Of a stretch of 64,000 nucleotides of DNA, positions 11,906-34,610 are shown one piece after another; the first letter of the stretch is position 1, and every line of letters begins with the position of its first letter. A model generated the notes under the pieces. The model did not search any database. It saw only the letters and a program-made list of their open reading frames with translations, and was not told the origin of the DNA. Source of the DNA: an uncultured Acidobacteriota bacterium. Its GTDB lineage: Bacteria; Acidobacteriota; Vicinamibacteria; Marinacidobacterales; SMYC01. The stretch lies in contig CAVQUX010000015.1 in NCBI GenBank assembly GCA_963716925.1, positions 308,104 to 372,103 on the forward strand, in the 5' to 3' direction. A program made the position numbers and the translations under genes.

Positions 11906-12075
11906 CGGTTACTCAAGGGATGCCGCCGGGGCACCGCCGCCATGGCCCGTTCGTCGGAATTCATCACGTCGTCAGCTCCATTTGTATTAGACCCGAAGAG
12001 CCTGAGCGGGACATGAGGCGCGAATTAATTCCGTTTAATCCGCCCCCGCGATCGCGCGCCCATGAGTGGACACGC
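11906..12075. repeat. about 170-bp intergenic cassette, copy 1 of 2 (second copy 14326-14520, roughly 85% identical by eye)
   Basis: Shared strings TCGGTTACTCAAGGGATGCCGCC, CCCGTTCGTCGGAAT, TTGTATTAGACCCGAAG, CCTGAGCGGGACATGAGGCGCGAATTAA, TTAATCCGCCCCCGCGATCGC; abuts the start codon of the membrane fusion protein gene. Confidence 0.7.
12024..12040. promoter_or_regulatory. ATTAA-N6-TTAATC dyad motif (site 1 of 7)
   Basis: AT-rich inverted repeat in GC-rich DNA; identical 11-bp half-site spacing at all 7 sites. Confidence 0.45.
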
Positions 12076-12245
12076 GCGCCCCGACGATCCGTGCGCGCTG
12101 TCAACGAAGAAGTCGCGAAGACACCTCTGCTACCGTTTGGCTTCAATTCCGACGGTCTCGAGAGGGGATAACCGTGAGCCTGACCATTTCCTGCCCACAC
12201 TACCGTTGCCGCGCAGGCGCCCCTGACGACTCTCACACAGCTGAT

Positions 12246-13076
12246 TCAGGAGCGGGCCGGCCAAGCATCGTGCCGAACCCGTCCCTTGCCGGCACGCTTC
12301 GCTTCGTACAAGCGGCCGTCGGCTTCACGCAGCGCGTCGTCGAGGTTCGGAGGGGCGCAGTTGAAAGTCACTGCGCCGAGGCTAAGGCCAACCGGCCAGC
12401 CTCGCTCCCGCAGGCTCGGCACTTGCTCGAGCAGATCGCGGAAGACCGCCGCCGCCTCCTCCGCCGCCGTCTCCGGCAGCAGGAGCCCGAACTCGTCACC
12501 GCCCAACCGAGCCACGAGATCCACCCCGCGTAGCCGCCCAAGGAGCAACCCACTGACGGCCACGAGCGCCTTGTCACCCGCCTCATGGCCTAAAGTGTCG
12601 TTCAGGTGCTTGAAGCCGTCGAGATCGATGAGCGCCACGGTGAAGGGACGCCCGTGGCGCCGGGCCCGTTCGATCTCGGCGACCGCCGCCTCCTGGAAGG
12701 CGCGCCGATTCTTGAGGCCTGTCAAGGTGTCCGTGAGCGCCATTTCCGACTCGAAATCCAGCCGACGCTTCAGGCTGGCGATCAGCGCGGCCATAACGGC
12801 GAAAACGGCCAGTTCCGTAGAGAAATTCCAGAACCGCACGGCATCACTCAGCGGCGGGAGGTGGGTTCCATTCGCCACAAAGGAGCTCAGCGCCGCCGCC
12901 GCGGCGAAGAACAGTCCGCTCCCAAGTCCGGCGCTCCAAGTCGCCACTGCCACGGGGCCCAGGTGGATCAGCGTGAAGGCGACATCGTCCCCGCTGACGT
13001 GGTCACCGATCCCCGCGAGCACCACCCCCGCGGTTGCCAAGCCCAGGGCGGTCGTTCGCGAGAGGCGCACCCTCAT
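12246..13076 (-). CDS. membrane-bound GGDEF-domain diguanylate cyclase
   Basis: TM N-terminus; GGDEF signature RLGGDEFGLLL; start taken at MRVRLSRTTALGLA within the longer ORF. Confidence 0.7.
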   Translation of the reverse strand: MRVRLSRTTALGLATAGVVLAGIGDHVSGDDVAFTLIHLGPVAVATWSAGLGSGLFFAAAAALSSFVANGTHLPPLSDAVRFWNFSTELAVFAVMAALIASLKRRLDFESEMALTDTLTGLKNRRAFQEAAVAEIERARRHGRPFTVALIDLDGFKHLNDTLGHEAGDKALVAVSGLLLGRLRGVDLVARLGGDEFGLLLPETAAEEAAAVFRDLLEQVPSLRERGWPVGLSLGAVTFNCAPPNLDDALREADGRLYEAKRAGKGRVRHDAWPARS

Positions 13077-13296
13077 TGTGGCACCGTACCCAGGATCAGC
13101 TCGACCAGCCGCTCGCACTTGCCTCTGAATTGGTGGCCAGGAGCTCCTGCGGCCCGCACTCGTTGGACCTGGATGCGTTCGGTGCCAAGTCGTGTGTTCC
13201 GGACGAAGAGAATGGCGCCCACACCCGGTTCCGGCGTCGCGGACCGCTTCAAGCACGCAGCGCACATGACGGTGGCAGATCCCAGCTCGTTTCGGT

Positions 13297-14325
13297 TCAC
13301 TCGCTGGCCTCGACGGCGAAGACGAAAACCGTGCGGTCGTCACACCAGTTGGGGACTTCCGCAGGGCCGGGGGCCGCAGCCGCGACCCGGAGCAGTTCGT
13401 CGCAGATCTGGGCTGGCGAACTTCCCGCGGTCAAACGCTCCAGCGACGCTCCCAGGGTCTGGCTCAGAGTCGTCGGCCCGGTTCCGAGCGCTTCGGTAAT
13501 GCCGTCCGTGACCAGTACGCCGATGTCGTTCGGGCTCAGGGCGAGGTCGGCGACCGAATACGTCGCCCCCGGAAGCAGCCCCAGGGGTGGCCCGCCGGAC
13601 TCGATCGCAGCGGTGAGCGATCCGTTCCGCACCAAGTAGCCCGCGGGATGGCCGGCGTTGACGTAGACGAGCCGCGCGGGCTCCGTCTCGAAGCGCGCCA
13701 CGATGGCTGTCGCGTACGGTAGCCCCGCGTACTCTTCGTAGAGCGCCGCGGAGATCCGCTCCGCGATGATCGCTGGGGCGCCGGTCTCGCGAGCGAAGGC
13801 TCGAAACAGAGTCTTGAGCGACGACAGGATGAGCGCCGCCGGGATGCCCTTGCCCGAGACGTCGCCCAGGATCGCGAGCACCGTGTCCGAGGTGGGCTGG
13901 AAGAAGTCGTAGAAGTCGCCCCCGATGTGGCTCGCAGGGATCATGCGCGCCGCCCAGCGGAAGCTCTGGGTGGTCTGCGGGACGTCGGGCAGCAGGCCCC
14001 GCTGGATCTGCAGCTGCGAGGCGCAGTTGCTCGTTGACGGCAATCTGCTCCTGCTGCAGCTTGAGTACGTGAGTTCGAGAAGCCTTCAGATGAAGCCAGA
14101 GGTAGGTGAGCCCGGCCACACCGATCGAAATCACGGCGTCGCTCAGCCACTCCAACTCGCCACGGTTGCCGTGAACCGCACGGATGATCATCGACTCTGC
14201 CGCCGTGCCGACGGCGAAGACGGCGATTCCCGCCGCCGTAGCGAGAACCGAAGGTATCCACACGGCCGGACCGACCCCGGCGGGCACCCTGCGAGTCGGG
14301 CTCAGCGCCTCTGAGCCTTCATCCA
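13297..14325 (-). CDS. PP2C/SpoIIE-family serine phosphatase with N-terminal TM segments, 1 frameshift near 14000
   Basis: IGGDFYDF...LGDVSGKGIPAA...VNAGHP...TDGITE motifs; N-terminal membrane part MDEGSEALSP... lies in a different frame. Confidence 0.7.
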
Positions 14326-14520
14326 TGCGTCGGTTACTCAAGGGATGCCGCCCGGCGCACCGCCGCCATAGCCCGTTCGTCGGAATCCATCAAGTCGTCG
14401 CCTCAGGTTGTATTAGACCCGAAGGGCCTGAGCGGGACATGAGGCGCGAATTAAATCCACTTAATCCGCCCCCGCGATCGCACGCCCGTGAGAGGACAGA
14501 GCCGCCCCGGTGATCGACGA
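14326..14520. repeat. about 170-bp intergenic cassette, copy 2 of 2 (see 11906-12075)
   Basis: Same sequence blocks as copy 1; lies between the divergent PP2C gene (minus) and the response regulator gene (plus). Confidence 0.7.
14450..14466. promoter_or_regulatory. ATTAA-N6-TTAATC dyad motif (site 2 of 7)
   Basis: ATTAAATCCACTTAATC. Confidence 0.45.
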
Positions 14521-14594
14521 TGAATTACTATGGACCCGGCCGCGCGGCGCGTGCGAACGCCTCAGCGAAGGCACCGGACAGACAGGGGGTGGGT

Positions 14595-15270
14595 ATGCGC
14601 GTCCTCGTGATTGAGGACGACCGGAAGGTCGCGAGTTTCATCCAGACCGGCCTCGAGCAGGAAGGCTACGCCGTGGACCTCCTCAACGACGGCGCGGAGG
14701 CGGGCGATCAGGCGCTCGCCATCGATTACGACGCCGTCGTGCTCGATTTGATGCTGCCAGGCCGGTCCGGGTTCCAGGTTCTGCGGGACATCCGGGCGAG
14801 AAAGGCGTCGCTGCCGGTGCTCATTCTCACGGCCAAGAGACTCGCTCGAGGAGCGCGTCGCCGGGCTCGATGCCGGTGCGGATGACTACATGACCAAGCC
14901 GTTCGCGCTCGCGGAGCTCTCGGCACGGCTCCGCGCCTTGCTCAGGCGCGGCGCGCCTCGCGAGAGCGTTCTGCGCGTGGCGGACCTCGAGATGGACACC
15001 GTGCGGCGCAAGGTGCGACGCGCGGGAAGAGCGATCGACCTGAAGCCCAAGGAGTACGCGCTGCTCGAGATTCTGATGCGGAACGTCGATCGTCCGTTGA
15101 CCAAGGCGCTGATCATCGAGCACGTCTGGGACATCCATTTCGACAGCATCAGCAACGTCGTCGAGGTCCACATCAACTCGCTGCGAAACAAGATCGACAA
15201 GGGATTCGACATCCCCCTCATTCACACCATCCGGGGAGTCGGGTACGTCCTCACGGAGGCTCCGTCGTGA
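14595..15270 (+). CDS. OmpR/PhoB-family response regulator, 1 frameshift near 14835
   Basis: MRVLVIEDD...DLMLPGRSGFQVL receiver, then winged-helix LKPKEYALLEILMRN...TIRGVGYVL in a second ORF. Confidence 0.8.
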
Positions 15271-16670
15271 CCCTGACTCTGCGCGCCCGGTTGGCCACGA
15301 TCTCCACGATCGTGTTTGGCCTGCTCCTCGCGGCGCTCAGTTTTGTTTCGTACGAAGTACTCTCCCGGCAGCTCGATGCTGACGTCACGGAGCGCCTCAC
15401 GCAACTCACCGATGGTCTCCATGGGTACTTGCATTTCGACGGCGACACGGCGTCGGTCGTGTTCGACGCAAGAGACAACGATCAGGCGGTGTTCGTCAAC
15501 GAGGCGACGAGATACTACCAGGTATACGACGCAGAAACCGGCCGCCTCCTTGCCGAGTCGAGTGCGTTGACACCTCTCGCACTGCACTTGACCCCGGGTG
15601 AGGTCCGGGGGTTTCGCGCGGAGCCGACGCCCTTCGACATCGAGACCGAGTATGGCCGACTGCGCATCTCCAACAGCTTGGGGACGGAGGCAAACGGCCG
15701 CGCGTACCTCCTGCAGTTGGGGGTGTCGCTCGTGCCGATGGATACGGCGCTCGCGCGTTATCGCGACCACCTGTTGTGGCGTGTGCCGGTGGCGCTTCTG
15801 GTCGCCATCGCTGCCTCGTGGTGGCTGTCGGCGCTCGCCTTGCTCCCGCTTTCTCGGGTGGCGGTGGCGGCGAGCGAGATCAACGTGCAGACGCTCGAAC
15901 GGCGGCTGCCGAGTCGCGGCGTGGACGATGAACTCGAGCAGTTGGTCGACGCCTTCAACGACACGCTCGGGCGCCTCGAACATGCGGTCGGGGAGATGCG
16001 CCAGTTCAGTGCTGCCCTGGCGCACGAGCTGCGTACGCCGCTGGCCGCGCTTCGAGGCGAGATCGAGCTGGCCATGCGGGCGCCTGGAGCGAACCCGGCA
16101 CAGCGAGACCGGTGTGCCAGCCAGGTGGAGGAGATTGACAGGCTGACGCGGCTCATTGACCACATCCTGACCTTGGCCCGGGCCGAGTCCGGCCAGATTC
16201 GGCTTACCCGTGCGCCAGTCAATCTCGCCGATCTCGCCGCCTCTCTCGTCGAGCAGCTCGAGCCCCTCGCGGCGGCGAGGTCGATCGAGCTGCGCTCGGA
16301 GCCGTCCGATGCGGTGTTTGTCGATGGCGACGCCGGCTGGCTCCAACGACTGTTGCTGAACCTGGTGGACAACGCCATCAAGTTCACGAAGGAGAACGGC
16401 CGGATCGTGGTGCGGGTCACCCGCGAGGGCGACGACGCGCGGGTCGATGTGCAAGATACGGGAGTTGGCCTGTCGCCCGCCGATGCGCGGCAGGCGTTCG
16501 AACGATTTTTCCGAGCCGAGCCCGCTCGTTCCTCCTCGACCGAAGGCGCGGGGCTCGGCCTGAGCCTGGTCCGGTGGATCGCGGCGCAACATCGCGGAAC
16601 GGTAACCGTTCAGAGTCGTCTGGGCGAGGGCTCGACGTTCACCGTCACCCTGCCCCTCAGTCGAGGCTGA
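15267..16670 (+). CDS. sensor histidine kinase (two TM, HAMP, HisKA, HATPase_c)
   Basis: GTGA overlap with regulator stop; H-box LAHELRTPL; DTGVGL and GLGLSLV G-boxes; intact 467 aa ORF. Confidence 0.85.
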   Translation: MTLTLRARLATISTIVFGLLLAALSFVSYEVLSRQLDADVTERLTQLTDGLHGYLHFDGDTASVVFDARDNDQAVFVNEATRYYQVYDAETGRLLAESSALTPLALHLTPGEVRGFRAEPTPFDIETEYGRLRISNSLGTEANGRAYLLQLGVSLVPMDTALARYRDHLLWRVPVALLVAIAASWWLSALALLPLSRVAVAASEINVQTLERRLPSRGVDDELEQLVDAFNDTLGRLEHAVGEMRQFSAALAHELRTPLAALRGEIELAMRAPGANPAQRDRCASQVEEIDRLTRLIDHILTLARAESGQIRLTRAPVNLADLAASLVEQLEPLAAARSIELRSEPSDAVFVDGDAGWLQRLLLNLVDNAIKFTKENGRIVVRVTREGDDARVDVQDTGVGLSPADARQAFERFFRAEPARSSSTEGAGLGLSLVRWIAAQHRGTVTVQSRLGEGSTFTVTLPLSRG

Positions 16671-16863
16671 CCTTGGCCTCTGTCGCACCGGCGCCCATCG
16701 CTCGAGCTTCCGTAGGACGCTCGAGAAGCCACTTTGCGGCATTGAGGAGAGATCGCCCCTTCAGGTTCGCCTCAGGTCGCGGCGAGCAAATAGTAAGTCG
16801 ATTGACAGAGTGTCATCCGGCGCGTTGTTCCGCGCAAAGGACTCGACATGTGATCGAAAGGCC

Positions 16864-19411
16864 ATGACCAAACACGCACGTGTCAGCCACCCCCTGTACG
16901 GCCTGCTGCCCACGGACCTCGAGGGATTCGATTCCCTCGCGGACCTTGCTCTGGATATGCGCTGGTCGTGGAATCATGCCGCCGACCGAGTGTGGCGGGA
17001 GCTGGATCCGGAGCTTTGGGCTCTGACCCAGAATCCCTGGGTCGTTCTGCAGACCGTCTCGCGCGAGAAACTCCAGCGCGTACTGGACGATTCCGCTTTT
17101 CGCAAAGACGTTGACGATCTGGTGCAAGCGAGGCGGCATGCCGCGGAGGCGCCAGCGTGGTTTCAGAAAACCTACCCGGGATCCCAGCTGCGCCGTGTTG
17201 CGTATTTCAGTATGGAATTCATGTTGAGCGAGGCGTTGCCCATTTACTCGGGCGGGCTGGGCAACGTTGCCGGCGATCAACTCAAGGCTGCCGCCGATTT
17301 GGGCGTCCCGGTGATCGGCGTGGGGCTTCTCTACCAGCAAGGCTATTTTCGGCAGCTGATCGACAAGGATGGCGCGCAACAGGCGCTTTTTCCGTACAAC
17401 GATCCCGGACAGTTGCCGATCGCGCCGTTGCGTAAGTCGAATGGCGAGTGGTTGCGGCTGGAGATCGCCTTACCCGGTTATTCGGTCTGGTTGCGTGCCT
17501 GGCAGGTTCAAGTCGGTCGCTTGAAGCTATACCTGCTGGACAGCAATGACGCCGCGAATTACCCCGCGCATCGAGGCATTACCAGCGAGCTTTACGGCGG
17601 CGGGCCGGAATTGCGCCTCAAACAGGAAATCCTTCTCGGGGTCGGCGGATGGCGGCTGCTCGCGGCGCTTGGCAGCGAGCCGGAAGTCTGCCACCTGAAT
17701 GAGGGACACGCTGCCTTCGCTGTGCTGGAACGCGCGCGAAGCTTCATGGAGGATACCGGGCGGACGTTCGAGGTCGCGCTGGCCGTCACCCGGGCGGGCA
17801 ACCTTTTCACCACCCACACGGCAGTGGCTGCCGGCTTCGACCGTTTCGCCCCGGCGCTCGTCGAGCAATACCTCGGTGGTTATGCCGAGCGGGAACTCGG
17901 CCTGACCCCCCACGATTTGCTGGCCCTCGGCCGTCAGAACCCGAACGACTCGTCCGAACCCTTCAACATGGCGTATCTGGCAATTCGCGGTAGCGGGGCG
18001 GTCAATGGCGTGAGTCGCTTGCACGGAAAAGTGAGCCGGCAGCTGTTTGGACCGCTCTTTCCACGCTGGCCGCAGGACGCAGTTCCGGTCGGACACGTAA
18101 CCAATGGAGTCCACCTGCCGAGCTGGGACTCGGCCCCGGCCGATGATCTGTGGACGCAAGCCTGTGGAAAGAAACGTTGGCTGGGGGCGATGGAAACGCT
18201 GGAGCAGGATATTCGCTGCGTCTCCGACGCCAGTCTCTGGCAGTTTCGCACGGCCGCCAGCAAGGTGCTCGTTGAATACGCCCGCGAACGATTGTCCAAA
18301 CAACTGGTCGCGTCAGGAGCGTCGTCCGAAGCGGTTGACGACGTGAAGCGCCTGTTTGACAGCAATACGTTGACGCTCGGTTTCGCTCGCCGTTTTGCCG
18401 CCTACAAGAGACCGAATCTGCTGCTCCACGACCCGGAACGACTGCTGCGCCTGCTGACGAATCCTCAACGCCCGGTGCAGCTCATCCTGGCGGGCAAGGC
18501 CCATCCCGAGGATCTGGCCGGCCAGGCGATGATCCAGGAATGGACTCATTTCATCCGGCGGCCCGACGCGCGCCGTCATGCGATCTTCCTCAGTGACTAC
18601 GACATGCTCTTGACCGAGCAGTTGGTGCAAGGCGTGGATGTCTGGCTCAACACGCCGCGACGCCCCTGGGAAGCGTGTGGGACCAGCGGCATGAAAGTAC
18701 TGGTCAACGGCGGCATCAATTTGTCGGAGCTGGATGGCTGGTGGGCGGAAGCCTACACGCCGGAGGTGGGGTGGGCGCTGGGGGACGGCCAGGAACACGG
18801 CGACGATCCGGCCTGGGACGCTGCCGAAGCCGAAGCGCTCTACGACCTGCTCGAACGCGAGGTGATCCCCGAGTTCTACTACCCGCGACGAGCATGGGAT
18901 CCCCAGCGCCTGGGTGGCGCGGATGCGGGAAAGCATGGCGCGGTTGACGCCGCGCTTCTCCACCAACCGCGTCGTGCGCGAGTACACCGAGCAACATTAC
19001 TTCCCGGCGGCCTCGGCCTACCTGGAGCGGGCTGCCGACAATGGCGCCATCGGCGTGCGGGTGGTTGATTGGCGGCATGCGCTGGACCAGAAATGGACCG
19101 CGCTGCGCTTCGGCGAAGTGAAGGTAGAGACCGACGGCGAGCAACACGTTCTTGAGGTTCAGGTCTATCTCGATGAGCTCGACCCGGAGGCCGTGCGGGT
19201 CGAGATCTACGCCGACGGAGTCCGGGACAGCGCTCCCCTGCGGCAGGAGATGGAGCGCGTGCGGCAACTGGTGGGCGCTGCCAACGGCTACGCCTATCGC
19301 GCGCGGGTGCCTTCTGCCCGCCCGTCGACGGACTATACGGCGCGAGTAATTCCGAACTTCCCCGGGGTCGCGGTTCCGCTGGAAGCCCCTCAAATCCTGT
19401 GGCAGCGATGA
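16864..19411 (+). CDS. glgP: alpha-glucan (glycogen/maltodextrin) phosphorylase of the alpha-glucan-family type, 1 frameshift near 18890
   Basis: DMRWSWNHAADRVWRELDPELW N-terminal domain, GGLGNVAGD, long GT35-like body; C-terminus RDEHGIPSAWVARMRES... continues in ORF 18914-19411. Confidence 0.75.
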
Positions 19412-22357: not shown

Positions 22358-22374
22358 ATTAACGGAAGTTAATC
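22358..22374. promoter_or_regulatory. ATTAA-N6-TTAATC dyad motif (site 3 of 7), perfect palindrome ATTAAC-N4-GTTAAT
   Basis: cATTAACGGAAGTTAATCtgcgcCTCACG, about 100 bp upstream of the STAS gene. Confidence 0.5.
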
Positions 22375-22470
22375 TGCGCCTCACGATCCGCTGAACCGTG
22401 TCTCGTAGTATTTGCTTCATGATCACGAGATCGACTGCCGCATCAACCAAAAGGGGTTAGTCACACGTTG

Positions 22471-22815
22471 ATGAACATCGAGCAACGGAGCGTCGGGGAC
22501 GTCATCGTGCTGTCGATCCGGGGCGATATCACGATGAATGGAACTGGGGCGACTCCGCTGGCAGACAAAGTCCGAAGCGAGCTCCAGCAAGGTCGCGATC
22601 GCTTTGTGCTCGATTTGCGGCACGTGCGCTACGTAGACAGCGCGGGACTCGGGGAGCTCGTGCAGGCGTTCTCTGCCGTGCTGAACCGAGGCGGAGCGAT
22701 GAAGCTCCTCAAGGTGACCAAGCGGCTGAAAGACTTGCTCGTGGTGACCAAGCTCCTGACCACGTTCGCATGCTTCGAAGAAGAATCAGAGGCGCTGGCC
22801 AGCTTCGAGCCTTAG
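22471..22815 (+). CDS. STAS-domain anti-sigma-factor antagonist (SpoIIAA/RsbV-like)
   Basis: 115 aa; conserved DSAGLGEL motif around the phosphorylatable Ser. Confidence 0.7.
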   Translation: MNIEQRSVGDVIVLSIRGDITMNGTGATPLADKVRSELQQGRDRFVLDLRHVRYVDSAGLGELVQAFSAVLNRGGAMKLLKVTKRLKDLLVVTKLLTTFACFEEESEALASFEP

Positions 22816-23213: not shown

Positions 23214-24994
23214 CTAGGCGTTTTCGGGACGGTCATCCGCGTTACGGTTGGACGGCTCCACGGGGATCCTTCCCGCAACGTTGAAGGCAGCGCCATCGGT
23301 GATTGCCGATGCGTGGGTTGTCGTCAGCGGCTGCGAGTGTTCGAGGCCGACGAGTGTCCACCCGGCCGCCTCGCGGCGGAAGTAGGCACGTACGGGAACC
23401 GCCCAGGCAGGACTCGCCGGCGCCAGCGCACGGATGTCAACGCGCACGAACGCGCCGACGTCGCTCGGAAGCGCAGTCGGGGCGCTTGCGCTCGTGGAGC
23501 GAGTCTCGGTGACGTCGCCCAGTGGAGCGGCGTCGCCCGTCGCGTTGTCGAACCGGTACCAGGCGACGCGGTACGAGGAGGGTGCGGTCGCAACGCCGCT
23601 ATCGACCGCGGCGTTGTGGAAGGTCAGCAGGCCGGTATCATCCAACGATGGGGCGACGATGGGGTTGATCTTGGTCAGGAAGGCCCGACCAATGGCGTTG
23701 CGACGCCCGACCAGTGTTTCCACCAGGTAGTCCTCGGCCGCCGGGTCACTGAATTTCCCGCTCTTCACCGCCGCCGCAATCATCGGCTCGGTGACCGCCA
23801 TGACCTTGCGCGCCGCCCAGAACGTGTCGTCCGGCTGGGCGCGGAGGTACGCGGCGTTCGGCACCCGGCTCCGCCACGATTCGGGGTCGAAGCGATCCGC
23901 TTCTATCCGACCGACCCCGCGGAGGTTCGGGTAGGGGATGGTGCGCCAGTCCTCGATGGGGAATCCGAATCCCAGAAGCTTCTTGAGAAGCGGTTTGCCG
24001 GCGTAAAGGTATTCGTAGCCTTCCCAGTACTCATTGGGAGCGATCCCGGCGCTACCGAGCGTCGATCCGAAGTCGAGCACGTGATGGCGGACGATCGTCT
24101 TACCATCGACAGTGACGAGCGTGTCGAGCGTGTTGCCCGCTTTCGCATCCACCCGGTCGATCCAGGCGGCGAACACGTCCATCGCGCGCAACTCGCGCCG
24201 GTTCTCGTGGGGCACGATGTCGTTGGGATCGTCGGCGCGGGTGCCATAGTACAGAAATTCTCCCACCGGCTTGCCGTCGAGCGCTTTGCTCGTGATCGCA
24301 CGATAAGCTGCCGTCGGGGCTCCGGTCCACCAGAGCCAGCACCCGGTCGACGTCGCTGGCCGTCAGCCGTCGCCGTTTGCCATGCACCGTGATGGTGGCG
24401 TCCGGGCCCACCACCAGGTCCCCGCGGCGAATCGTCACCACGTGCGTCTCCGCGACGTAGTAGCCAAGGGCCCAGAACAGCTTCGTGGCCACGACTTCCG
24501 CTCCGGTGGCCTGTTCGGGGTACCCCGGGGCGTCGAACTTGATGAACCAGAGGACTCCGGCCGCGTCCCGGATCGTGAAACCCGGCCTCACGCCCTCCGA
24601 CTTTCCGGACACGACGGTCCAACGGCCGCACCGGTCCGTCCGTGGTGTCCGGGCCTCTGGCGACGTCCGCCAAGGACAGCGTTCGAGATCCGACGCGATT
24701 CGTGAACCAGCTGGAATCGGGAACCTCGTCGATGGTGTTGACGTTCCGTGCGCGTCCCCGGGTCGGATCGCCTTCCTTGACGAACAGGCTGGAAAGGATG
24801 TCCCACGACAGGTGGATCGGGAACGGTCGTACGTGCGACGCGTCGGCCGGGTCCGGTTCCCGCGCGATCGGATCGTCGTGAAAGAACGCGGGTCCCGCGG
24901 CCGACAGGGGCGGACTGAGCAGTACCGCGAGCGCGATTGCGGCGCCGGCACGGCGAGCGCATCCGTGGAGGTTGGGAAGCCTTGGAGTCATCAT
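23214..24994 (-). CDS. hypothetical secreted protein with a possible kinase-like catalytic motif, at least 2 frameshifts
   Basis: Signal peptide MMTPRLPN...AIALAVLLSPPLSAAG; segments WFIKFDAPGYPEQATGAEVVATKLFWALGYY and GNTLDTLVTVDGKTIVRHHVLDFGSTLGS resemble PI3/4-kinase or HipA-type folds; this assignment is uncertain. Confidence 0.35.
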
Positions 24995-25002
24995 GATCCA
25001 CC

Positions 25003-26166
25003 TCAGAAGCTGACAGTGCGCGCGAAGTTGTAACGCCAGCCCTCGACGCTGTGGGCCACTTCGAGACGGAGCGCGGTGTAAGTCGAGCCGTGAAACCGGG
25101 CGCCGATACCCCATCCCCGCTTCAAGTCGTGCAGGTCGAGCGCACCCGCGCTTGCGGCGACGGTTCCGTGGTCGAGGAAGACCGCCATGTCGACCAGCGG
25201 GGACGGTGTCCAGCGCAGCTCGCACCTCAGGAGCAGGCTGTTGTTGTCCGTGAAACGGTAGTCTGCGAACCCGGGAAGCGTGTCCCGCCCGCCGATCCAG
25301 GGCAGCATGAAGAAAGGGATGACCTGCCCCTGCGCCGACGAGGCCAGGTCGGCTCGCGCCTGCAGGGCGATGATCCAGTTGTTGTGAAGGAGGGGCACGA
25401 ACTGCCGGAGGTCGATCTCGGTTCGGGTGAAGTCGGCAGCGGTTCCGCGGCCTGCGTAGTCGTGGAAGCCGACGCGGTACAGGCCGCCGGAACTCGTGTA
25501 CCCGGGCGATTGGCGCGAATCGACCGCCGCGTACGCCGTAGTGTGCCACCATTCCGCGGTCGAGCTCGTACCGATAGTCGGCGCGTCTCCGGTCCCCTCG
25601 CTCGATTGGACGTCCAGATAGCTCGCGCCCACGCCGTATCGGAACCACCGGGCGCTGCGGGCCTGCACTTCGCCGCCGACTTCCGTTGTCCGCAGGCCGT
25701 AACTCACCCCGTCATCGATCGAAGTGCCGGTGCCGAGTCCAAAGAACTGAAGTTCTGGAGCGTCTTCCCACCTGGCAACGGCGCGTACGCGCACCCGGTC
25801 GGTGGCCAGGGGCGGTATGTCCACCGCCGTCTCCACCTCCTTGAAGTGCTTCACCGACCATGCCGCCGAAACGTCCCACAATCCACGCTCGCCCACGGGC
25901 ATCTCGTAGCCAACGCCGAGGGCGAAGCCGCCGCCGGGCCGAAAATCACCGAAGTGGAGGCGGATGGCCGGTGGCGCCGGCAGCAATATGTGCTCGAGCT
26001 CGGTGATGATGACGTCACCCTTCTCGCGCGTTTCGGGCTTCACGTCAGCGGCCTTGGCTGCTTTCTCGTCACTGATCTGTTCAGCACGTGTTGCTTGCGC
26101 CCAGGCACGAGGTGCCATGAGCCAAGCGATCAGCCAAAGGGCGGCTCCGGGGTACCTGCGCGGCAT
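25003..26166 (-). CDS. outer-membrane beta-barrel protein (hypothetical)
   Basis: Signal peptide; alternating amphipathic beta-strand pattern; C-terminal ...RYNFARTVSF ending in Phe; intact 387 aa ORF. Confidence 0.55.
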   Translation of the reverse strand: MPRRYPGAALWLIAWLMAPRAWAQATRAEQISDEKAAKAADVKPETREKGDVIITELEHILLPAPPAIRLHFGDFRPGGGFALGVGYEMPVGERGLWDVSAAWSVKHFKEVETAVDIPPLATDRVRVRAVARWEDAPELQFFGLGTGTSIDDGVSYGLRTTEVGGEVQARSARWFRYGVGASYLDVQSSEGTGDAPTIGTSSTAEWWHTTAYAAVDSRQSPGYTSSGGLYRVGFHDYAGRGTAADFTRTEIDLRQFVPLLHNNWIIALQARADLASSAQGQVIPFFMLPWIGGRDTLPGFADYRFTDNNSLLLRCELRWTPSPLVDMAVFLDHGTVAASAGALDLHDLKRGWGIGARFHGSTYTALRLEVAHSVEGWRYNFARTVSF

Positions 26167-26223
26167 GTCTGTTCCTCCACCGTGGATTTGACGCGAAAAG
26201 ACTGATGCGAACGTGAAGCCGCG

Positions 26224-26240
26224 ATTAATTCGGATTAATC
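26224..26240. promoter_or_regulatory. ATTAA-N6-TTAATC dyad motif (site 4 of 7)
   Basis: gcgATTAATTCGGATTAATCC, same flank as sites 1 and 2. Confidence 0.45.
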
Positions 26241-26267
26241 CCCGTCGTCCGTTGGTGGTCGCCGGTC

Positions 26268-26284
26268 ATTAAAAGGAGTTAATC
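26268..26284. promoter_or_regulatory. ATTAA-N6-TTAATC dyad motif (site 5 of 7)
   Basis: gtcATTAAAAGGAGTTAATCgg...tCACG, same flank as sites 3, 6 and 7; tandem with site 4, about 75 bp upstream of the PAP2 gene. Confidence 0.45.
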
Positions 26285-26358
26285 GGGGTTTCACGTCGCG
26301 CTCACGCGGGTTGCTGCGTAATACACGGAGACACACGAGCGTGTCGAGGAGAAGCGAC

Positions 26359-27297
26359 ATGACGTCATCTGGAATGATCCTGGTTCTTGCTGCGGCGCTG
26401 GGCGTGCCCGCCACGGGGCGAGCGTCGTCGAGGGACGACGGGAGCGTCGCAGAAACGGACCGCACGCGGCAAGCGGAGCCGGCCCAGCCCCCAGTGGAGG
26501 ACGGTGCTGTGTTGCCGAAGGAGCAGTCGCCGGCGATCGACCCATCGCAGACCAGAGCGGCCGAGGAGGACGTGCCGCAGGACGGGAAAACCGGATTACG
26601 CACGCTTTTCCGTGATCTTGGCAGCGACTTCGCGCACCTGCCGTCTCGCGATTCGCTCTTCGTCGCCAGCATAGGGGGTACCGCCGCTCTCGCCCTGCAC
26701 CCGTTCGACGCGACGTTCAACGAGCACCTCCAAGACTCATCGTTCTTCAGCGCTGGCGATCGGCTCGGAAACACGTTCACGCTCATGGGCGCGACGTTCG
26801 CCGTGTACGGCGTCGGGCTCGCGACCGGCCATCATCGCGTCACCCACGTGGCGATGGACGTGGTGCGAGCGCAGCTCGTGAGCGAAGCCCTGGTGCAGTC
26901 GTTGAAGGTGGCGGTGCGCCGGGAGCGGCCGGACGGCAGCAGCGGCTATTCGTTTCCGTCCGGCCATGCGGCGGTGACGTTCGCCACCGCCACCGTGCTC
27001 CAGCGGCATCATGGCCTCAAGTGGGCCCTGCCGGCCTACGGGCTGGCGACGTATGTGGCCATGTCGCGGCTTCACGACAACGTGCACTACCTGAGCGACG
27101 TCGTCTTCGGGGCGACCATCGGTACGCTGGTCGGGCGGACCGTGACTCGACACGGCCCCCAGAACTTCGCCTTCATGCCGATGGCGGTACCTGGCGGCGC
27201 GGCGTTTGTCGTCCTGTACTCACCCAGAGGCTCAATAGAGTGCGGCTTCAACGGACCTCGCCGAGTACCGCTGCGGTTCGCCCAGTCCAGTCATTAA
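26359..27297 (+). CDS. PAP2-family (acid) phosphatase
   Basis: KVAVRRERP, FPSGHAA and SRLHDNVHYLSDV motifs (KxxxxxxRP / PSGH / SRxxxxxHxxxD). Confidence 0.75.
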   Translation: MTSSGMILVLAAALGVPATGRASSRDDGSVAETDRTRQAEPAQPPVEDGAVLPKEQSPAIDPSQTRAAEEDVPQDGKTGLRTLFRDLGSDFAHLPSRDSLFVASIGGTAALALHPFDATFNEHLQDSSFFSAGDRLGNTFTLMGATFAVYGVGLATGHHRVTHVAMDVVRAQLVSEALVQSLKVAVRRERPDGSSGYSFPSGHAAVTFATATVLQRHHGLKWALPAYGLATYVAMSRLHDNVHYLSDVVFGATIGTLVGRTVTRHGPQNFAFMPMAVPGGAAFVVLYSPRGSIECGFNGPRRVPLRFAQSSH

Positions 27298-27441
27298 GGG
27301 AAGTTAAGCGGTCGCTCACGCTCCGATCATCGGCGAGAGGTCAAATGGAGTTGAGAGCATCCAGCGGTGCAGCGCCGGTGGCTCGGTGAGCCTCGGGCGG
27401 TGCCGCGAAAAAAGAGGAGAGACGTCATGAGACTTCGCCGT
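27288..27441 (+). repeat. about 155-bp upstream cassette (promoter, 5'UTR, RBS and first 5 codons MRLR), copy 1 of 2
   Basis: GTCATTAAGGGAAGTTAAGCGGTCGCTCACGCTCCGATCATCGGCGAGAGGTCAAATGGA...GCGGTGCCGCGAAAAAAGAGGAGAGACGTCATGAGACTTCGCC is near-identical to 34458-34610. Confidence 0.7.
27293..27309. promoter_or_regulatory. ATTAA-N6-TTAAGC dyad motif (site 6 of 7)
   Basis: tcATTAAGGGAAGTTAAGCggtcgCTCACG. Confidence 0.45.
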
Positions 27442-28041
27442 AGGAGTCAAGAAATGCTCATCCGACCCTTGAAGATCCACTGGTTTCCGGCCGCTTTGAT
27501 CATCGGCTTGCTCGGAGCGGCCTGCGCCGAAGCTCCCGAGAGCGAGGAAAAAGACGCGAAATCGGCGATCGCGATGGCCCGCGCCGCCGAGGCGGCAGTC
27601 TACGCCCCCGACACCCTCGCCCTTGCCGAAAAGGCGATGACGGATGCCGCCCGAGCGATAGACACCGAAGCGCACCGCTTCGGTCCGATGCGCAGCTACA
27701 GGGAAGCCTCGAGACTTCTCGAAGAAGCGAAGACCCGCGCCGATGAAGCGAAGGCTCAGGCGGAGCAAGAGCGCGAGAAGTGGATGCGTGACGCGAAATC
27801 CGCCGTCGCTGATGCACGCAGCGGGCTCGAGCAGGCGAATGCGGCCCTCGCCAAAGCGCCGAGACAGCTCGCGCAGCAGCCCGAGATGAAGAAGAGGGGC
27901 GAGGACTGCGAGAAGCTGCTCTATGACGCGGAGAAGGCCTTCGACGCCAAGAGCTACAAGGACGCCGCGGAGAAGGCCCGAGACGCTCAAGCCGCGGCGG
28001 ACGACCTTGTCGAGAGCCTCCTGGTGGGTTTCCGAGGGTGA
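27427..28041 (+). CDS. hypothetical lipoprotein, Ala/Lys/Glu-rich coiled-coil
   Basis: Signal peptide with lipobox LLGAAC; helical low-complexity body. Confidence 0.5.
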   Translation: MRLRRRSQEMLIRPLKIHWFPAALIIGLLGAACAEAPESEEKDAKSAIAMARAAEAAVYAPDTLALAEKAMTDAARAIDTEAHRFGPMRSYREASRLLEEAKTRADEAKAQAEQEREKWMRDAKSAVADARSGLEQANAALAKAPRQLAQQPEMKKRGEDCEKLLYDAEKAFDAKSYKDAAEKARDAQAAADDLVESLLVGFRG

Positions 28042-28582: not shown

Positions 28583-28899
28583 TCGCGCGAACTCGGATTG
28601 CGGATCAAACGAGCGATGGATAGGAAACGCTTGGGACGAGGGTTGCCCGCGCCACATCAATCACTCCGAACGACGCTCGAGCGCCTCGGCGTCTTTCGGT
28701 ACGGAGCGCAGGCGAGAGCCGGGCGAAAGATCAGGTCGGGGCCCGGTTGGAACGCTGACCCGGGAGTTCAGGGAAATGAAGGAATACGAGTTCGGCCCAG
28801 ACATCCTGCCTCTAGCATTCGAACGGTTCGTCTTCGCGGTTCACCCGCAGGTCGCTGTTGACCGGGGCGGAAAGACTCGCGCAGACAGGAGATTCGTCC

Positions 28900-29592
28900 A
28901 TGGATCCAATCACCATCATCGGCGTGGCCCTGGTGGCCATCGTTTCCATCACCAGTCACGAGGCGGCCCACGGTTTCGTGGCCGATCGTTTCGGCGATCC
29001 CACGGCGCGCGAGCAGGGGCGCCTTACCCTGAATCCGCTTCCGCACATCGACCTGTTTTTCACAATCCTGCTTCCGCTCGTGTTGATCCTGTCCCGCTCG
29101 GGCTTCATCTTCGGAGGCGCCAAGCCGGTTCCGGTGAACGTGTCGCGGTTGCGGAACCCTCGACGCGACTGGGCGCTGGTGGGCGCCGCGGGGCCGCTCA
29201 TGAACGTGCTCATCGCCCTCGTGCTTACGGTCCTGCTCTCGGCCGCCGCGCACCTCGGCCTCGCCGATGCGTCTTCGAGCCTGACGGAGATCCTCTCGGT
29301 GGGTATCTTCCTCAACGCGCTGCTCGCGATTTTCAATCTCATCCCGATTCCTCCCCTCGACGGGTCGCGAGTGCTCCAGTACTTCCTCTCCGGGGAGAGT
29401 CTCGACCTCTACCGGCGCGTCGAGCAGTTCGGCCTGTTGATCCTCATCGCCCTCCTCTTCCTCGTCCCATCGTTCCAGTTCTTTCTGGCGGACGCGATCT
29501 TCGGGCTCGTCGCGATTATCACGGCGCCGTTTGGCGTGTGGGCAGACGTCGAGCCGCTGCTCCGAAGTCTTCTATTTCCGCCCGGTACGTGA
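28900..29592 (+). CDS. site-2-protease-type M50 metallopeptidase (small membrane form)
   Basis: HEAAHG (HExxH) and [10 protein letters not shown] motifs; 231 aa, 4-6 TM. Confidence 0.75.
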
Positions 29593-29638
29593 TGGACGAC
29601 TCCGCGTTGTAGACTCGTACCGCGGATCGAGAACGAGC

Positions 29639-31770
<2,132 letters not shown>

Positions 31771-31901
31771 TTGTCAGAGATTCAGGAAGCGGCCGACGTG
31801 AACGCTATCAACGCGTTATCGACACCCGGGTCCTCCGCGACGGCTTGCGGGCATGAGTCTTGCGCATGATCCCAACGGTGGGGGAACGAAAGGGTGGAAA
31901 A

Positions 31902-32780
31902 ATGAGACGAATAGGCGCTCTCGAATTTGCCTTCGCGCTGATGCTTGTTCCCGGCCGCTCGATGGCGGGCCAGGAGGCGCTCTATACCGACGGAGAGCTC
32001 GAAGATTGCCTCCTGGCCGACCTGTCGCATCTCGACATCCACGGTCTCGACGTCCGGGTCGTCGGGGGCATGGTCGACGTTTCGGGCGAAGTGGGAAGTC
32101 TGGCCGAGAAGAAGGAAGCGGAATCGACGATAAGGCGAAGATCGCAGGTGCGCGACGTCTCCAACGAGCTTCGAGTGGCGCAGGTTCCCGATGCCGAGCT
32201 GCAGCGAGACGTCCTGGCGGCGCTCGAGGACAGCCGCCACTACACGATTTACGACGAGCTGAGCGCATCCGTCTCCGGAGGTGTCGTGACTCTCGCCGGT
32301 CGCGTGCCTCGGGACAGCGCTCTCGACGGAGTCGTGAGCGACCTGTCAAAGGTGCGGGGCGTCCGCGCGATCCAGAACGAGGTGCGAATCCTTCCCTACA
32401 CTCCGGAAGAGGAAAAGCTGCAGGAAGGGGTAGCCATCGACGTCTCGGCGGCTCTGGTGAAGCTCGATCGACGAACTTCTTCCCTCCATGTCGTCATCGA
32501 GAACGACACGGTCACTTTGAGCGGGATGGTCGGGGACGACATTGCGAGGAGAGCCGCGGAAGAGGCAGCCCGTCGATCGGCAGGCGTAAAAGAGGTACAG
32601 AATCGGCTCCGGATCGGGGAGCCCTGGACGCGACCGCGATCCTCGATACCGGAAGACTCTATCGATCGCGGCACGGAGCTTGCGAAGGCTCCCCGCGCCA
32701 CGGCTGCCCGCGCCTTTGCACGGCAGGACGGGTCACACCGCTATGCGGGGATAGACCTGGGCAGCAATGATCACAAGTAG
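31902..32780 (+). CDS. BON-domain periplasmic protein (three or four BON repeats)
   Basis: Signal peptide MRRIGALEFAFALMLVPGRSMAG; repeated BON-like segments. Confidence 0.65.
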   Translation: MRRIGALEFAFALMLVPGRSMAGQEALYTDGELEDCLLADLSHLDIHGLDVRVVGGMVDVSGEVGSLAEKKEAESTIRRRSQVRDVSNELRVAQVPDAELQRDVLAALEDSRHYTIYDELSASVSGGVVTLAGRVPRDSALDGVVSDLSKVRGVRAIQNEVRILPYTPEEEKLQEGVAIDVSAALVKLDRRTSSLHVVIENDTVTLSGMVGDDIARRAAEEAARRSAGVKEVQNRLRIGEPWTRPRSSIPEDSIDRGTELAKAPRATAARAFARQDGSHRYAGIDLGSNDHK

Positions 32781-33029
32781 AGTCGTGGTCGAAAGGAGCA
32801 GCAGGAAATCCGTGCCAATGCCAAAGATGCTGGTTCCTCCCGCAATCATGAAAGCTCGAAGCACATCGACCTCGTAGCTGAGCGGGTTGATCCGCGCAAC
32901 GAGACGCAACCAATCGGGCATGATCGCCAACGGGTAGATGGCGTTGCTGGCGAAGAATAGAGGCATCGTCAGGATCTGCCCGATCCCCATGAACCGCTCG
33001 CGAGTCTTGACGATGGCTGCGATGATCAA
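32733..33029 (-). pseudogene. C-terminal fragment of an ABC-2-type transporter permease
   Basis: Last 2-3 TM helices only (…INPLSYEVDVLRA…); no upstream remainder of the gene; overlaps the 3' end of the BON gene. Confidence 0.4.
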
Positions 33030-33099
33030 CGAAAGGGTGGCGAAGCAGCCGCGCCACCGCTATGTGCGCGCGGGGCGGACTGCTTTCCTCTCACGGGAC

Positions 33100-33847
33100 G
33101 TCGGGAGTGGCGCGGCCCGCCGCGCTCCTCTCCGACGATGAGAAACAGCCATTTGACCAGGCGGGTGGTCACCTCCTCGACATGCAGCGCCGGGTGGGCC
33201 GTCTGGATGAGCTCGGTCGTTCGGCCGAAGTACGTCCCAACGCCGGTCGCCACGACGACAGCGGTGGCCTCACCCCGACGAACGCTCGATCCGGAGTAAA
33301 CGGCTTCGTCCGCCGCCCTTTTGGCCTCCTGAGATTCTCCCGTCAGTGCAGACTGGTCCACCCGCAACTCGCCCTCGAGGATGAGTGCGTCGGCGGGGAC
33401 GATATCCCCCGCACGCACGCGCACCACGTCGCCTTTCACCAGCTCACGCGCTGCGAGAGGCTTCCAGGTCCCGTCGCGAAGCACTCGAGCCGTGACCTGG
33501 AGCCGGCGCCGAAGAGCGGACACGGCCGCCGAGGCGCGTTGCTCGTGCAGGAAACCGAGGGTCGCGTTCACCGTGAGCAGCGCGAGGGCGTTCCAGAAGT
33601 CAGCCCGCTTGTCGAGAATGAGGGAGAGGGCCACGATCAGCTCGAGCATCCACGCGGAAAGCCCCCAGAATTTGCTCGCGAGTCGAGCGAGCGGGTGAGC
33701 GCTCTTCTCGGGAACCTCGTTCGCACCCTCCCGGTCCAGCCTGAGCCTCGCCTCGGCAGCGGTCAGACCGGCCTCGCGGCTCGAGCCGAGGAATTGAATG
33801 GCGTCCGTCGCGGACTGGACCGGTTTGTGCGGTTCGATATCGGGCAT
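33100..33847 (-). pseudogene. N-terminal fragment of a P-type ATPase (PMA/H+ or Mg2+ type): TM1-2 plus actuator domain only
   Basis: GLTAAEARLRLDREGANEVPEK, TM helices, VLRDGTWKP...GDIVPADALILEG...ALTGES, then loss of homology; no DKTGT region follows. Confidence 0.5.
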
Positions 33848-33915
33848 CACCACGGCGGAGCTCGTCAGGTCGGTCCTCGGGCGACGAGCACGCGGATTGA
33901 CTCCAACGCGTCTGA

Positions 33916-34110
33916 GAGAGCCTCAGCGGGCTCGATCTTCAGAGTGAGCTCGCCAGAGCCGGGGCGTGTATTCCCGTCATTTTCGTCACCGGTCACGGTG
34001 ACATCGCGATGTCCGTGCGGGCTATGAAGGCCGGCGCGGTGGAGTTCTTCACGAAGCCGTTCCGCGATCAAGACCTTCTCGATGCGGTTCAAGACGCTAT
34101 CGAAGGCGGC
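33916..34110 (+). pseudogene. C-terminal half of a FixJ/NarL-type receiver domain (fragment)
   Basis: ESLSGLDLQSELARAGACIPVIFVTGHGDIAMSVRAMKAGAVEFFTKPFRDQDLLDAVQDAIE; in-frame stop immediately upstream; no HTH follows. Confidence 0.45.
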
Positions 34111-34140
34111 GCACGTCGAGCACCAGGCAGTCGGGAACGT

Positions 34141-34257
34141 CTCCGGTTGCTCCTGGTGCAGGAACTCCTGCGCCGAGCCGAAAGTCCCGACGCCGAGCCC
34201 CACCGAGCGGAGGAGACTGCTGAGTGCTTCGCGAATAGGTGGGGCGTCATCAATCAC
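34141..34257 (-). pseudogene. N-terminal 39 aa of a FixJ/NarL-type receiver domain, on the opposite strand and head-on to the previous fragment
   Basis: MIDDAPPIREALSSLLRSVGLGVGTFGSAQEFLHQEQPE; the two halves converge at about 34115-34140, implying an inversion breakpoint inside one receiver gene. Confidence 0.4.
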
Positions 34258-34457
34258 ATACTGGCTCGGCTTCCTTCATGACCGACGCTCTGGCCTCTTC
34301 GCACCTAAGTGCAGTCTTACCACGACCATGTCAACAGGGATCGGCCGCGGGACCGGCGACCGAACCGAGGCGACGAGAAACAGGTTCTCCTGCCTTGCTC
34401 TTCCCTGTGCTCTCTCGGGCCAGTCAGCTCCCCGCGCACCCCCGGAAAGCGGGCAAG

Positions 34458-34610
34458 GGGGTCATTAAGCGGAGTTAATCGGTCACTCACGCTCCGATCA
34501 TCGGCGAGAGGTCAAATAGAACTGGGAAAACGGTTCGGCGTTGCGAGTGGCTCGGCGTTCAGCGCGGTGCCGCAAAAAAGAGAAGGAGAGACGTCATGAG
34601 ACTTCGCAAG
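34458..34610 (+). repeat. about 155-bp upstream cassette, copy 2 of 2 (see 27288-27441)
   Basis: GTCATTAAGCGGAGTTAATCGGTCACTCACGCTCCGATCATCGGCGAGAGGTCAAATAGA...GCGGTGCCGCAAAAAAGAGAAGGAGAGACGTCATGAGACTTCGCAAG. Confidence 0.7.
34464..34480. promoter_or_regulatory. ATTAA-N6-TTAATC dyad motif (site 7 of 7)
   Basis: gtcATTAAGCGGAGTTAATCggtcaCTCACG. Confidence 0.45.

Follow-up and report, generated by a model that had tools for sequence, protein, structure and literature searches.

A conserved 54-bp promoter-like element in Acidobacteriota and its probable recognition by a CusR/PmrA-like response regulator

The Acidobacteriota dominate many soils and are mostly uncultured, and the Vicinamibacteria are among the most abundant soil lineages. 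To our knowledge almost nothing is known about transcriptional regulation in this phylum. The stretch of DNA analysed here, called the window below, comprises 64,000 nt from an uncultured member of the Vicinamibacteria (GenBank assembly GCA_963716925.1, contig CAVQUX010000015.1, positions 308,104 to 372,103 of the forward strand). It contains several copies of an AT-rich dyad, ATTAA-N6-TTAA(T/G), upstream of envelope and signalling genes, and the question that it raises is which factor recognises this dyad. The dyad proved to be the initial 16 bp of a longer element, which measures 54 bp, is directional and has its blocks at fixed distances. Judged from sequence comparison, we consider it rather probable that the dyad is the operator of the neighbouring CusR/PmrA-like two-component response regulator, fixed in a dedicated promoter.

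A sequence-only reading of the window, made without database searches, had reported the dyad at 12024, 14450, 22358, 26224, 26268, 27293 and 34464. A pattern search found all seven sites at these positions. In the window, which has a GC content of 60-69%, only 0.02 matches are expected by chance, and none of 100 dinucleotide-preserving shuffles reached the observed count. The sites had been placed 75-140 bp ahead of start codons; the upstream placement stands, and the measured range, counted from the dyad's first base up to the best start codon, is 73-134 bp. The copy at 22358, ATTAACGGAAGTTAAT, had been described as a perfect palindrome. Its reverse complement is ATTAACTTCCGTTAAT and therefore only 12 of its 16 positions are self-complementary. 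The most symmetric dyad is that at 26224 (14 of 16).

The symmetric 16-mer taken as the functional unit by the earlier reading is replaced by the longer, directional element. Its consensus, derived from 75 non-redundant sites, is ATTAAC-nGrA-aTTAAT-N7-TCAyG-N6-TCAgG-N9-TCAAAT. Each copy was numbered from the first A of the dyad and oriented toward the downstream gene. Block A (ATTAAC, positions 1-6) and block B (aTTAATC, positions 11-17) flank a centre, nGrA, in which A10 is nearly invariant. They are followed by block C (yTCAyG, positions 23-28), block D (CTCAgG, positions 34-39) and block E (gcgTCnAAT, positions 46-54), the last of which contains a -10-like hexamer, TCnAAT. The conserved block that had been noticed after four or five of the copies exists, and is present after all seven as TCAYG, exactly 7 bp past the dyad and on the same strand as the downstream gene. 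The TCA of block C is directly repeated in block D with 11-bp spacing (TCAyG-N6-TCAgG). In all copies 32 nt separate the 3' end of the dyad from the -10-like hexamer, a gap of 20 bp separates the -35-like from the -10-like block, and a C takes the place of the key A of a -10 box. A weight-matrix scan of the window revealed two extra copies, at 5631-5684 (minus strand) and 16738-16791 (plus strand). The seven original copies are all real but not fully independent, as 12024/14450 and 27293/34464 are duplicate pairs that include the leader. Every copy in the window is located between 5.6 and 34.5 kb.

Is the element a peculiarity of this contig? A strict form of the motif, run against a single genome of each species, gave about 70 chance matches in AT-rich genomes. 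The high-GC matches with the full architecture were all in Acidobacteriota, Vicinamibacteria or Vicinamibacterales metagenome-assembled genomes (MAGs), except for two MAG contigs labelled otherwise, and the 8-kb loci around the genome-scan matches contained more copies clustered within them. Metagenomes were scanned with a pattern that left the left half of the dyad and block D unspecified. This gave at least 120 loci, with about 45 high-GC soil and rhizosphere contigs among the matches listed, and in nearly all of these contigs the left half and block D are present at their fixed offsets. About 60% of the metagenome matches were discarded as low-GC repeat and conserved coding sequence, on the basis of GC content and of the missing other blocks. 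The repeat is a low-GC (approximately 40%) element (…TTAATCAGTTTTTCACGGCACAAGAATTAAATAATCGTCAAAT…; loci L103-L219, samples such as Ga0126337 and Ga00998xx) and the coding sequence is conserved in gut metagenomes; both are unrelated to the 54-bp element.

As a check on selection bias, conservation was recounted in sites that had never been selected on the block concerned. T2 was found in 58/58 and A4 in 57/58 of the sites never selected on the left half. T35 and A37 were each present in 35/36 of the sites never selected on blocks D or E. The bases of block E in these sites are T (75%), C (61%), n, A (81%), A (92%) and T (83%). A weight matrix built from blocks C, D and E gave 90 matches where about 2 are expected by chance, and 86 of them also carry the dyad. 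The element survives the refutation tests that the sequence-only reading had set: its enrichment is strong, its copies are always intergenic and they always point toward the downstream gene. In alignments of the HlyD and STAS upstream regions from 5-7 lineages conservation is confined to the element. The same downstream genes stand behind it in Vicinamibacteria and Acidobacteriota MAGs and in soil metagenomes. The proposal of the sequence-only reading that the copies regulate a coherent set of envelope and signalling genes is supported by this recurrence of the gene set in many lineages; a promoter motif or regulon of this kind in Acidobacteria was also looked for in the literature, where nothing relevant was found, in line with its description of the regulon as a candidate undescribed one.

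The best candidate for the factor that binds the dyad is encoded beside it. A response regulator gene of the OmpR/PhoB family (receiver and Trans_reg_C domains; 14520..15270, plus strand, split by a frameshift), whose real start is probably near 14595, is followed by the gene of its cognate sensor histidine kinase (HAMP-HisKA-HATPase; 15267..16670, plus strand). The pair had been listed as one target among several, but its genomic linkage to the element makes it the best candidate for the regulatory system itself. Of the 27 motif-fetched loci with a length of 4 kb or more, 18 encode an orthologue of the regulator (22/58 when all loci are counted), with bit scores of 240-495 against the copy of locus L068, whereas by our own estimate the chance for a single-copy gene at such loci is about 0.2%. 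The regulator is co-transcribed behind the element in six loci (L068, L138, L176, L204, L107 and L145), usually after the gene of a small secreted protein. In four loci of the motif-fetched set it is divergent and adjacent to the element, and these include the window itself (dyad at 14450, regulator from 14520). If loci fetched with the regulator are counted as well, the divergent arrangement is seen in the window, L057, L009, L063, L227, L228, L230 and L231.

The reverse test gave the same association. The best 120 matches of the homologue search with the regulator are all at least 88% identical, and three independent 20-kb loci fetched through orthologues of the regulator hold 3, 2 and 5 elements, respectively. 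Five loci were fetched with the regulator, and four of them (two of 20 kb and two short contigs) have their nearest element 75-100 bp upstream of its gene. Among 22 orthologues the recognition helix, SNVVEVHINSLRNK, shows essentially no variation, which matches the invariance of the box.

Family relationships point in the same direction. The best NCBIfam match of the regulator is the heavy-metal family cztR_silR_copR (TIGR01387; full length, 235.3 bits against a curated cutoff of 279.2), and that of the kinase is the heavy-metal sensor kinase family TIGR01386 (also aligned over the full length, 283.3 bits against a cutoff of 292.55). Many orthologues of the regulator are annotated CusR by JGI. 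Its DNA-binding domain is closest in the PDB to PhoP of Mycobacterium tuberculosis (Mtb), DrrD and PcoR, with PmrA/BasR also close, and the sensor domain of the kinase is homologous to the sensor domains of metal sensor kinases. It is this two-way genomic linkage, the family resemblance and the geometry of the element that lead us to assign the dyad to the regulator.

How might such a promoter work? A conserved TAGA is found 6-9 nt past position 54. This, together with the gap of 19 nt between the -10-like hexamer and the ATG behind the copy at 26186..26239, suggests that transcription probably starts near position 61. Counted from this predicted start the dyad would extend from about -60 to -45, with block C between -37 and -33, block D between -27 and -22, and block E between -12 and -7. 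The membrane kinase would receive a periplasmic signal, for which a metal, an oxidant or envelope stress are candidates, and would phosphorylate the regulator. A dimer of the regulator would then bind the 16-bp box ATTAAC-N4-RTTAAT, whose centre would be approximately 52 bp upstream of the start and whose 3' end is 32 bp before TCnAAT. From about -52 the bound regulator would activate, rather than repress, a fixed core promoter by recruiting or repositioning RNA polymerase on a non-canonical core with TCAyG at about -35, TCAgG at about -25 and cGTCAAAT as the -10.

Several observations weigh against the assignment of the dyad to this regulator. The linkage would also be expected if the regulon were clustered and the regulator-kinase operon simply its best-conserved member. 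The box has an asymmetric centre, in which A10, conserved at 92%, lacks a symmetric partner at position 7. Blocks C, D and E are conserved as strongly as the dyad, a regulator at -52 does not explain them, and the copy at 16738 retains them without a dyad. The NCBIfam scores of both regulator and kinase are under the curated cutoffs, and the regulon is far larger than known CusR regulons. The inner half-site, TTAAC, differs from the TTACA or TGACA of CusR and CopR, and the TTAA cores are 10 bp apart whereas the half-sites of PmrA are 11 bp apart. Finally, no conserved -10 was found at the mirrored distance on the regulator side of the divergent arrangements; for this reason a shared bidirectional box, as at cusR/cusC, was rejected.

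A more ambitious possibility, which we put forward only tentatively, would accommodate the downstream blocks as part of a new and rigid activator-polymerase architecture. A TCA repeat would extend over -35 to -25, followed by a -10 with C for A at the end of a 20-bp gap, and the promoter would be served by the regulator together with either an unlinked sigma factor resembling those of the extracytoplasmic function (ECF) group or a remodelled housekeeping holoenzyme. It would mediate a general envelope-stress response of the Vicinamibacteria. Such a system, if real, would take in STAS/PP2C, cyclic di-GMP and DksA-like signalling.

Because blocks C, D and E are left unexplained by a regulator at -52, two other readings were kept. 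The first, which we regard as unlikely, is that the whole 54-bp element is the dedicated promoter of an ECF-like sigma factor, with TCAyG as its -35, CGTCAAAT as its -10 and the dyad as an UP element for the alpha C-terminal domains, the response regulator being a mere member of the regulon. The downstream half does resemble ECF promoters: it has TCAC- and CGTC-containing blocks with rigid spacing, like all spacings of the element, and in its -10-like block a C replaces the A that sigma70 needs at the second position and CG stands ahead, giving the ECF-like cGTCAAAT. The -10 of Escherichia coli sigmaE, whose -35 is GGAACTT, has the motif GTC (PMC6648896), and the ECF41 promoter, TGTCACA-N16-CGTC with a spacer of 16 ± 1 bp, includes TCAC in its -35 (PMC3426412). 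A scan of 26100-26450 predicted no sigma70-type promoter in the element, and a promoter of this type was discarded. In addition the dyad would occupy UP-element territory at about -60 to -45, one copy has C-D-E without the dyad, and STAS and PP2C genes of the partner-switching type are among the regulon members.

Other details speak against this reading. The spacer between TCAyG and CGTC is 18 bp and thus 2 bp longer than that of ECF41 (16 ± 1), and it contains an extra, near-invariant TCA at about -25, for which a sigma factor gives no explanation. Where block E had played no part in the selection of sites, CGTC reaches only 55-75% as against 81-92% for AAT, and in unselected sites the left half of the dyad, with the counts given above for T2 and A4, is more specific than a degenerate UP element. 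ECF sigma factors are normally located together with their own promoters and autoregulated. No sigma or anti-sigma gene was found in the 58 motif-fetched or the 5 regulator-fetched loci. A phmmer search with RpoE, SigW, SigB, RsbW and SpoIIAB against all open reading frames (ORFs) of the high-GC loci gave one ECF sigma factor and no partner-switch kinase, and neither an RsbW- or SpoIIAB-like kinase nor a group-3 sigma factor was seen in any locus searched. The sole sigma gene of the window (55838-56545, plus strand; ECF) is 20 kb away and has a GGAAC-N16-CGTT promoter of its own at approximately 55925-55960, which looks autoregulatory. The alternative-sigma or SigB-like recognition considered by the sequence-only reading receives no support from gene neighbourhoods, since none of the copies has a sigma or RsbW-like gene nearby. 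STAS genes occur either as monocistronic units or behind the kinase gene, and the GGGTAT-like block of a SigB-type promoter (GTTTAA-N12-15-GGGTAT) is absent from the element. SigB, sigma28, sigma32, sigma54, sigmaH and the LysR motif T-N11-A were also discarded, as their consensus sequences, compared by eye, did not fit the element.

The second of these readings, which is quite unlikely, gives the dyad to another, unlinked dimeric factor, to a small 75-aa protein or to a second atypical OmpR-type regulator, while the Cus-like regulator would bind the TCA repeat of blocks C and D or nothing at all. The repeat TCAyG-N6-TCAgG has the 11-bp period typical of tandem dimers of the OmpR family and resembles the Mtb PhoP site, TCACAGC-N4-TCACAGC (PMC4832192), and the DNA-binding domain of the regulator is, as mentioned, closest to Mtb PhoP in the PDB. 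At the E. coli cusC promoter TCAC and TCAG occur at the same offsets past the box as in blocks C and D; cusR and hiuH are without them. However, the base-contacting residues Ser216, Tyr217 and Tyr220 of PhoP are not conserved in the regulator, which at these positions is PmrA-like (V-H) and fits a TTAA core. The second OmpR-type regulator and the 75-aa protein do stand behind elements in some loci, but are confined to few. The former has a degenerate receiver and a different recognition helix, EYLRVFMGQLRRK, and is encoded behind or near elements at L126 2057-2815 and L205 4506-5321. It also speaks against this reading that dyad and C-D-E are almost inseparable (86 of 90 weight-matrix matches).

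A role of the copies as a mobile or selfish repeat resembling a miniature inverted-repeat transposable element, or as a structured cis-regulatory RNA, neither with a promoter or operator function, is effectively refuted: although two copy pairs of the window share long flanks and some leaders have hairpins, the similarity of non-paralogous copies ends at the edges of the 54 bp, every copy points to the next gene, the element is retained before orthologous genes in different lineages, one copy is only 19 nt from its ATG, and structured RNA was rejected with 0 conserved pairs in 48 sites by RNAalifold and no Rfam match at gathering thresholds in the whole window.

Returning to a regulator-bound operator as the preferred reading, the genes behind the copies of the window indicate what would be controlled. 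Pfam confirmed the gene list of the sequence-only reading, namely HlyD/MacA-MacB-OEP efflux, TM-SpoIIE/PP2C with GGDEF, STAS, PAP2, a DUF4398 lipoprotein, BON and the OmpR-type regulator with its kinase. The first copy (11986..12039, dyad 12024-12039, minus strand) is upstream of an HlyD/MacA-like adaptor gene (10631-11905, frameshifted), and the operon continues with genes for a MacB-type ABC protein (8630-10467) and an OEP (7283-8284). The orthologous promoter is kept in L057, L078, L115, L155, L009 and L037; L057 is the closest relative of the window by DNA (85% identity). The second copy (14412..14465, dyad 14450-14465, minus strand) is a duplicate of the first, including a leader of approximately 130 nt. 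Divergent to the response-regulator gene, it precedes the TM-SpoIIE/PP2C gene (13297-14341, frameshifted) and a DUF4118-GGDEF gene (12246-13343). The third (22358..22411, plus strand) is upstream of a STAS anti-sigma-antagonist-like gene (22471-22815), and is kept before STAS orthologues in L037, L147, L209, L210 and L230; an identical STAS protein turned up only on two short Logan contigs. The fourth and fifth stand back to back: 26186..26239 (minus strand) faces the gene of a 387-aa Omp85-like outer-membrane protein (25003-26166), with a GGAGG within the 19 nt between the -10-like hexamer and the ATG, and 26268..26321 (plus strand) faces a PAP2 phosphatase gene (approximately 26359-27297). 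The sixth, the TTAAG variant (27293..27346, plus strand), precedes the DUF4398 lipoprotein gene (27427-28041). The seventh (34464..34517, plus strand) duplicates the sixth and its leader and precedes a BON-domain gene (34596-35231) followed by a gene at 35240-35974.

Of the two copies added by the weight matrix, that at 5631..5684 (minus strand) is degenerate, with the sequence CTTAA-N6-TTCAT...TCAGG...TCA...GTCAAAT, and is associated with a gene for a small secreted CusF-like or DUF5666-like protein (approximately 5081-5506, minus strand). The other is the dyad-less copy on the plus strand, with blocks C-D-E at 16760..16791 (TCAGG-N6-TCAGG-N9-GCAAAT). It lies directly 3' of the kinase gene and upstream of an alpha-glucan phosphorylase gene (16810-19068). 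On sequence grounds the regulon would have at least eight or nine promoters within 30 kb of the window, conserved in Vicinamibacteria-type Acidobacteriota. They would serve the MacAB-OEP efflux pump, PP2C-GGDEF, STAS, the Omp85-like protein, PAP2, the DUF4398 lipoprotein, BON and the CusF-like protein, and possibly the glucan phosphorylase.

The duplications in the window join similar promoters, each with 80-130 nt of 5' leader, to unrelated genes. One pair, 11880-12060 and 14306-14486 (minus strand), precedes HlyD and PP2C respectively. The other, 27293-27430 and 34464-34600 (plus strand), precedes DUF4398 and BON and has a common A-rich stretch ahead of the ribosome-binding site. The HlyD leader contains an upstream ORF of 20 codons (approximately 11904-11966, minus strand) whose stop overlaps the HlyD start (ATGA), and the duplicated leader of PP2C has a similar ORF. 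The upstream ORF was dropped as a feature because it is not conserved as an ORF in L057. A break-up into two or three overlapping frames affects many genes of the window, namely those for the HlyD adaptor, for MacB, PP2C and the response regulator, and for MprF, a glycogen enzyme and a Ser/Thr kinase that has a TolB-like domain (8630-11905, 13297-14341, 14520-15270, 2581-5063, 23214-25648, 29790-31856 and 40652-43073). Relatives from the ERZ250395xx assemblies are equally fragmented. Most likely the splitting reflects indel errors of long-read assembly rather than pseudogenes.

In other lineages the element is also followed by genes for a DksA/TraR-like zinc finger, VirJ, an outer-membrane beta-barrel and the second atypical OmpR-type regulator, as well as by the regulator-kinase operon. 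Small secreted proteins are the commonest target family, with 22 members identified. A profile of these 22 matched E. coli CusF over its full length with E = 4e-9 (22.9 bits) in a single-sequence comparison. As a whole the regulon would also include MacAB-TolC-type efflux, CusF-like and other small periplasmic proteins, the VirJ hydrolase, the DksA-like zinc finger and, in many genomes, the regulator-kinase operon itself. Genes for small secreted proteins with the motif 'VKVPFPFVV' have a leader that opens with a conserved hairpin, TAGATGAC-N4-8-GTCATC, after which comes GCGCAATCACGCGC, in the 10-45 nt past position 54 (seen in L111, L116, L117, L132, L148, L205, L126, L135 and L068). The TAGATGAC hairpin may be a gene-specific element of the 5' untranslated region. 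Genes for MprF (lysyl-phosphatidylglycerol synthase) and a VirJ/AcvB-like hydrolase flank the cluster in the window (1705-5063 and 36123-37613). MprF and VirJ genes recur beside the regulator-kinase operon in L227, L229 and L230, and VirJ genes stand behind the element in L067 and L192. These hints suggest that membrane lipid remodelling could be part of the same response.

The outcome is a defined site, based on 75 non-redundant sites from genome and metagenome scans, a named candidate regulator pair and a conserved list of targets. This makes the stress regulon directly testable and provides a marker for promoter annotation in Acidobacteriota MAGs. The blocks downstream of the dyad could also inform promoter recognition in the phylum.

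The sequence-only reading had seen no match of the dyad to CRP, FNR, LexA, CIRCE, HAIR or the sigma B consensus. The dyad is not unlike everything known: its length and its outer ATTA...TAAT are those of CusR/HprR/CopR boxes, and its TTAA core is that of the PmrA box. PmrA (BasR) recognises half-sites YTTAAK in direct repeat with a separation of 5 bp, and Asn188, His193 and His195 are the proposed determinants in its recognition helix (PMC3973317). The half-sites share the TTAA core with the element and the proteins share a helix N-x-x-E-V-H-I, including His193, a proposed specificity determinant (PMC3973317). The helix reads NVVEVHINSLR in the regulator and NTLEVHIHNLR in BasR. The two have Asn, Glu, Val, His and Ile in common, and in place of His195 the regulator has Asn. 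The element departs from the direct-repeat definition, since its TTAA cores are 6 bp apart (the hexamers 4 bp) with a period of 10 bp. PmrA sites overlap the -35 region, whereas the flanks here look inverted (A1/T16) and the site would be at about -60 to -45. The theme of envelope remodelling is similar, with a PAP2 phosphatase gene behind the element and MprF and VirJ genes nearby.

The binding sites of Cus/Cop/Czc/Hpr-subfamily regulators are AT-rich palindromes of 15-16 bp between the regulator's own operon and a divergent (efflux) operon (PMC11195947, PMC9302797). The box is ATT(A)CATnnATGTAAT in Pseudomonas paraeruginosa and AAAATGACAAnnTTGTCATTTT for E. coli CusR (PMC11195947), and CATTACAAAATTGTAATG at E. 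coli hiuH/hprR (PMC9302797). Like these the dyad is a 16-bp AT-rich inverted repeat with outer ATTA...TAAT (ATTACAAAATTGTAAT at hiuH, ATTAAC-N4-ATTAAT here), and in the 75 sites the outer bases A1-T-T/g-A ... T-A-A-T16 fit CusR-type boxes (CATTACAAAATTGTAATG, ATTCATnnATGTAAT / AAAATGACAAnnTTGTCATTTT), whose outer bases are ATTA...TAAT or ATGA...TCAT. The inner ACA/TGT of the CusR type (half-site GTAAT or TGTCAT) is missing, as the element has ATTAAC and (A/G)TTAAT with A and C at positions 5-6 and T at position 12. The distance from the box to the candidate -10-like hexamer is 32 nt here and 32-33 nt in E. coli K-12, where by our own reading TAAAGT follows the 16-mer after 33 nt at cusC, TACTCT after 32 nt at cusR and TATCCT after 33 nt at hiuH.

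In both systems the box stands beside the regulator-kinase operon, and in several loci here it is placed between the regulator and a target operon that diverges from it; the targets include CusF-like periplasmic proteins. In the window a distance of 2.5 kb separates the efflux box from the start of the regulator. In L057 the PP2C gene (4768-5814) is divergent to the regulator and the tripartite-efflux box follows directly, 1.2 kb from the regulator start. This synteny loosely recalls cusRS/cusCFBA, whereas the truly divergent-adjacent boxes of L227, L228, L230 and L231 precede a gene for 115-117 aa and no pump. Differences from CusR are the large regulon of envelope and signalling genes, as opposed to one or two metal operons, the rigidly conserved core promoter behind the box, and a regulator and kinase that score best against the heavy-metal subfamily yet under its curated cutoffs. 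If the regulator binds as proposed, the element would be a solid, though unsurprising, extension of the CusR/PmrA theme. It is best filed as a response-regulator operator of the CusR/HprR/PmrA type in an unusually rigid promoter, and so as a new regulon rather than a categorically new system.

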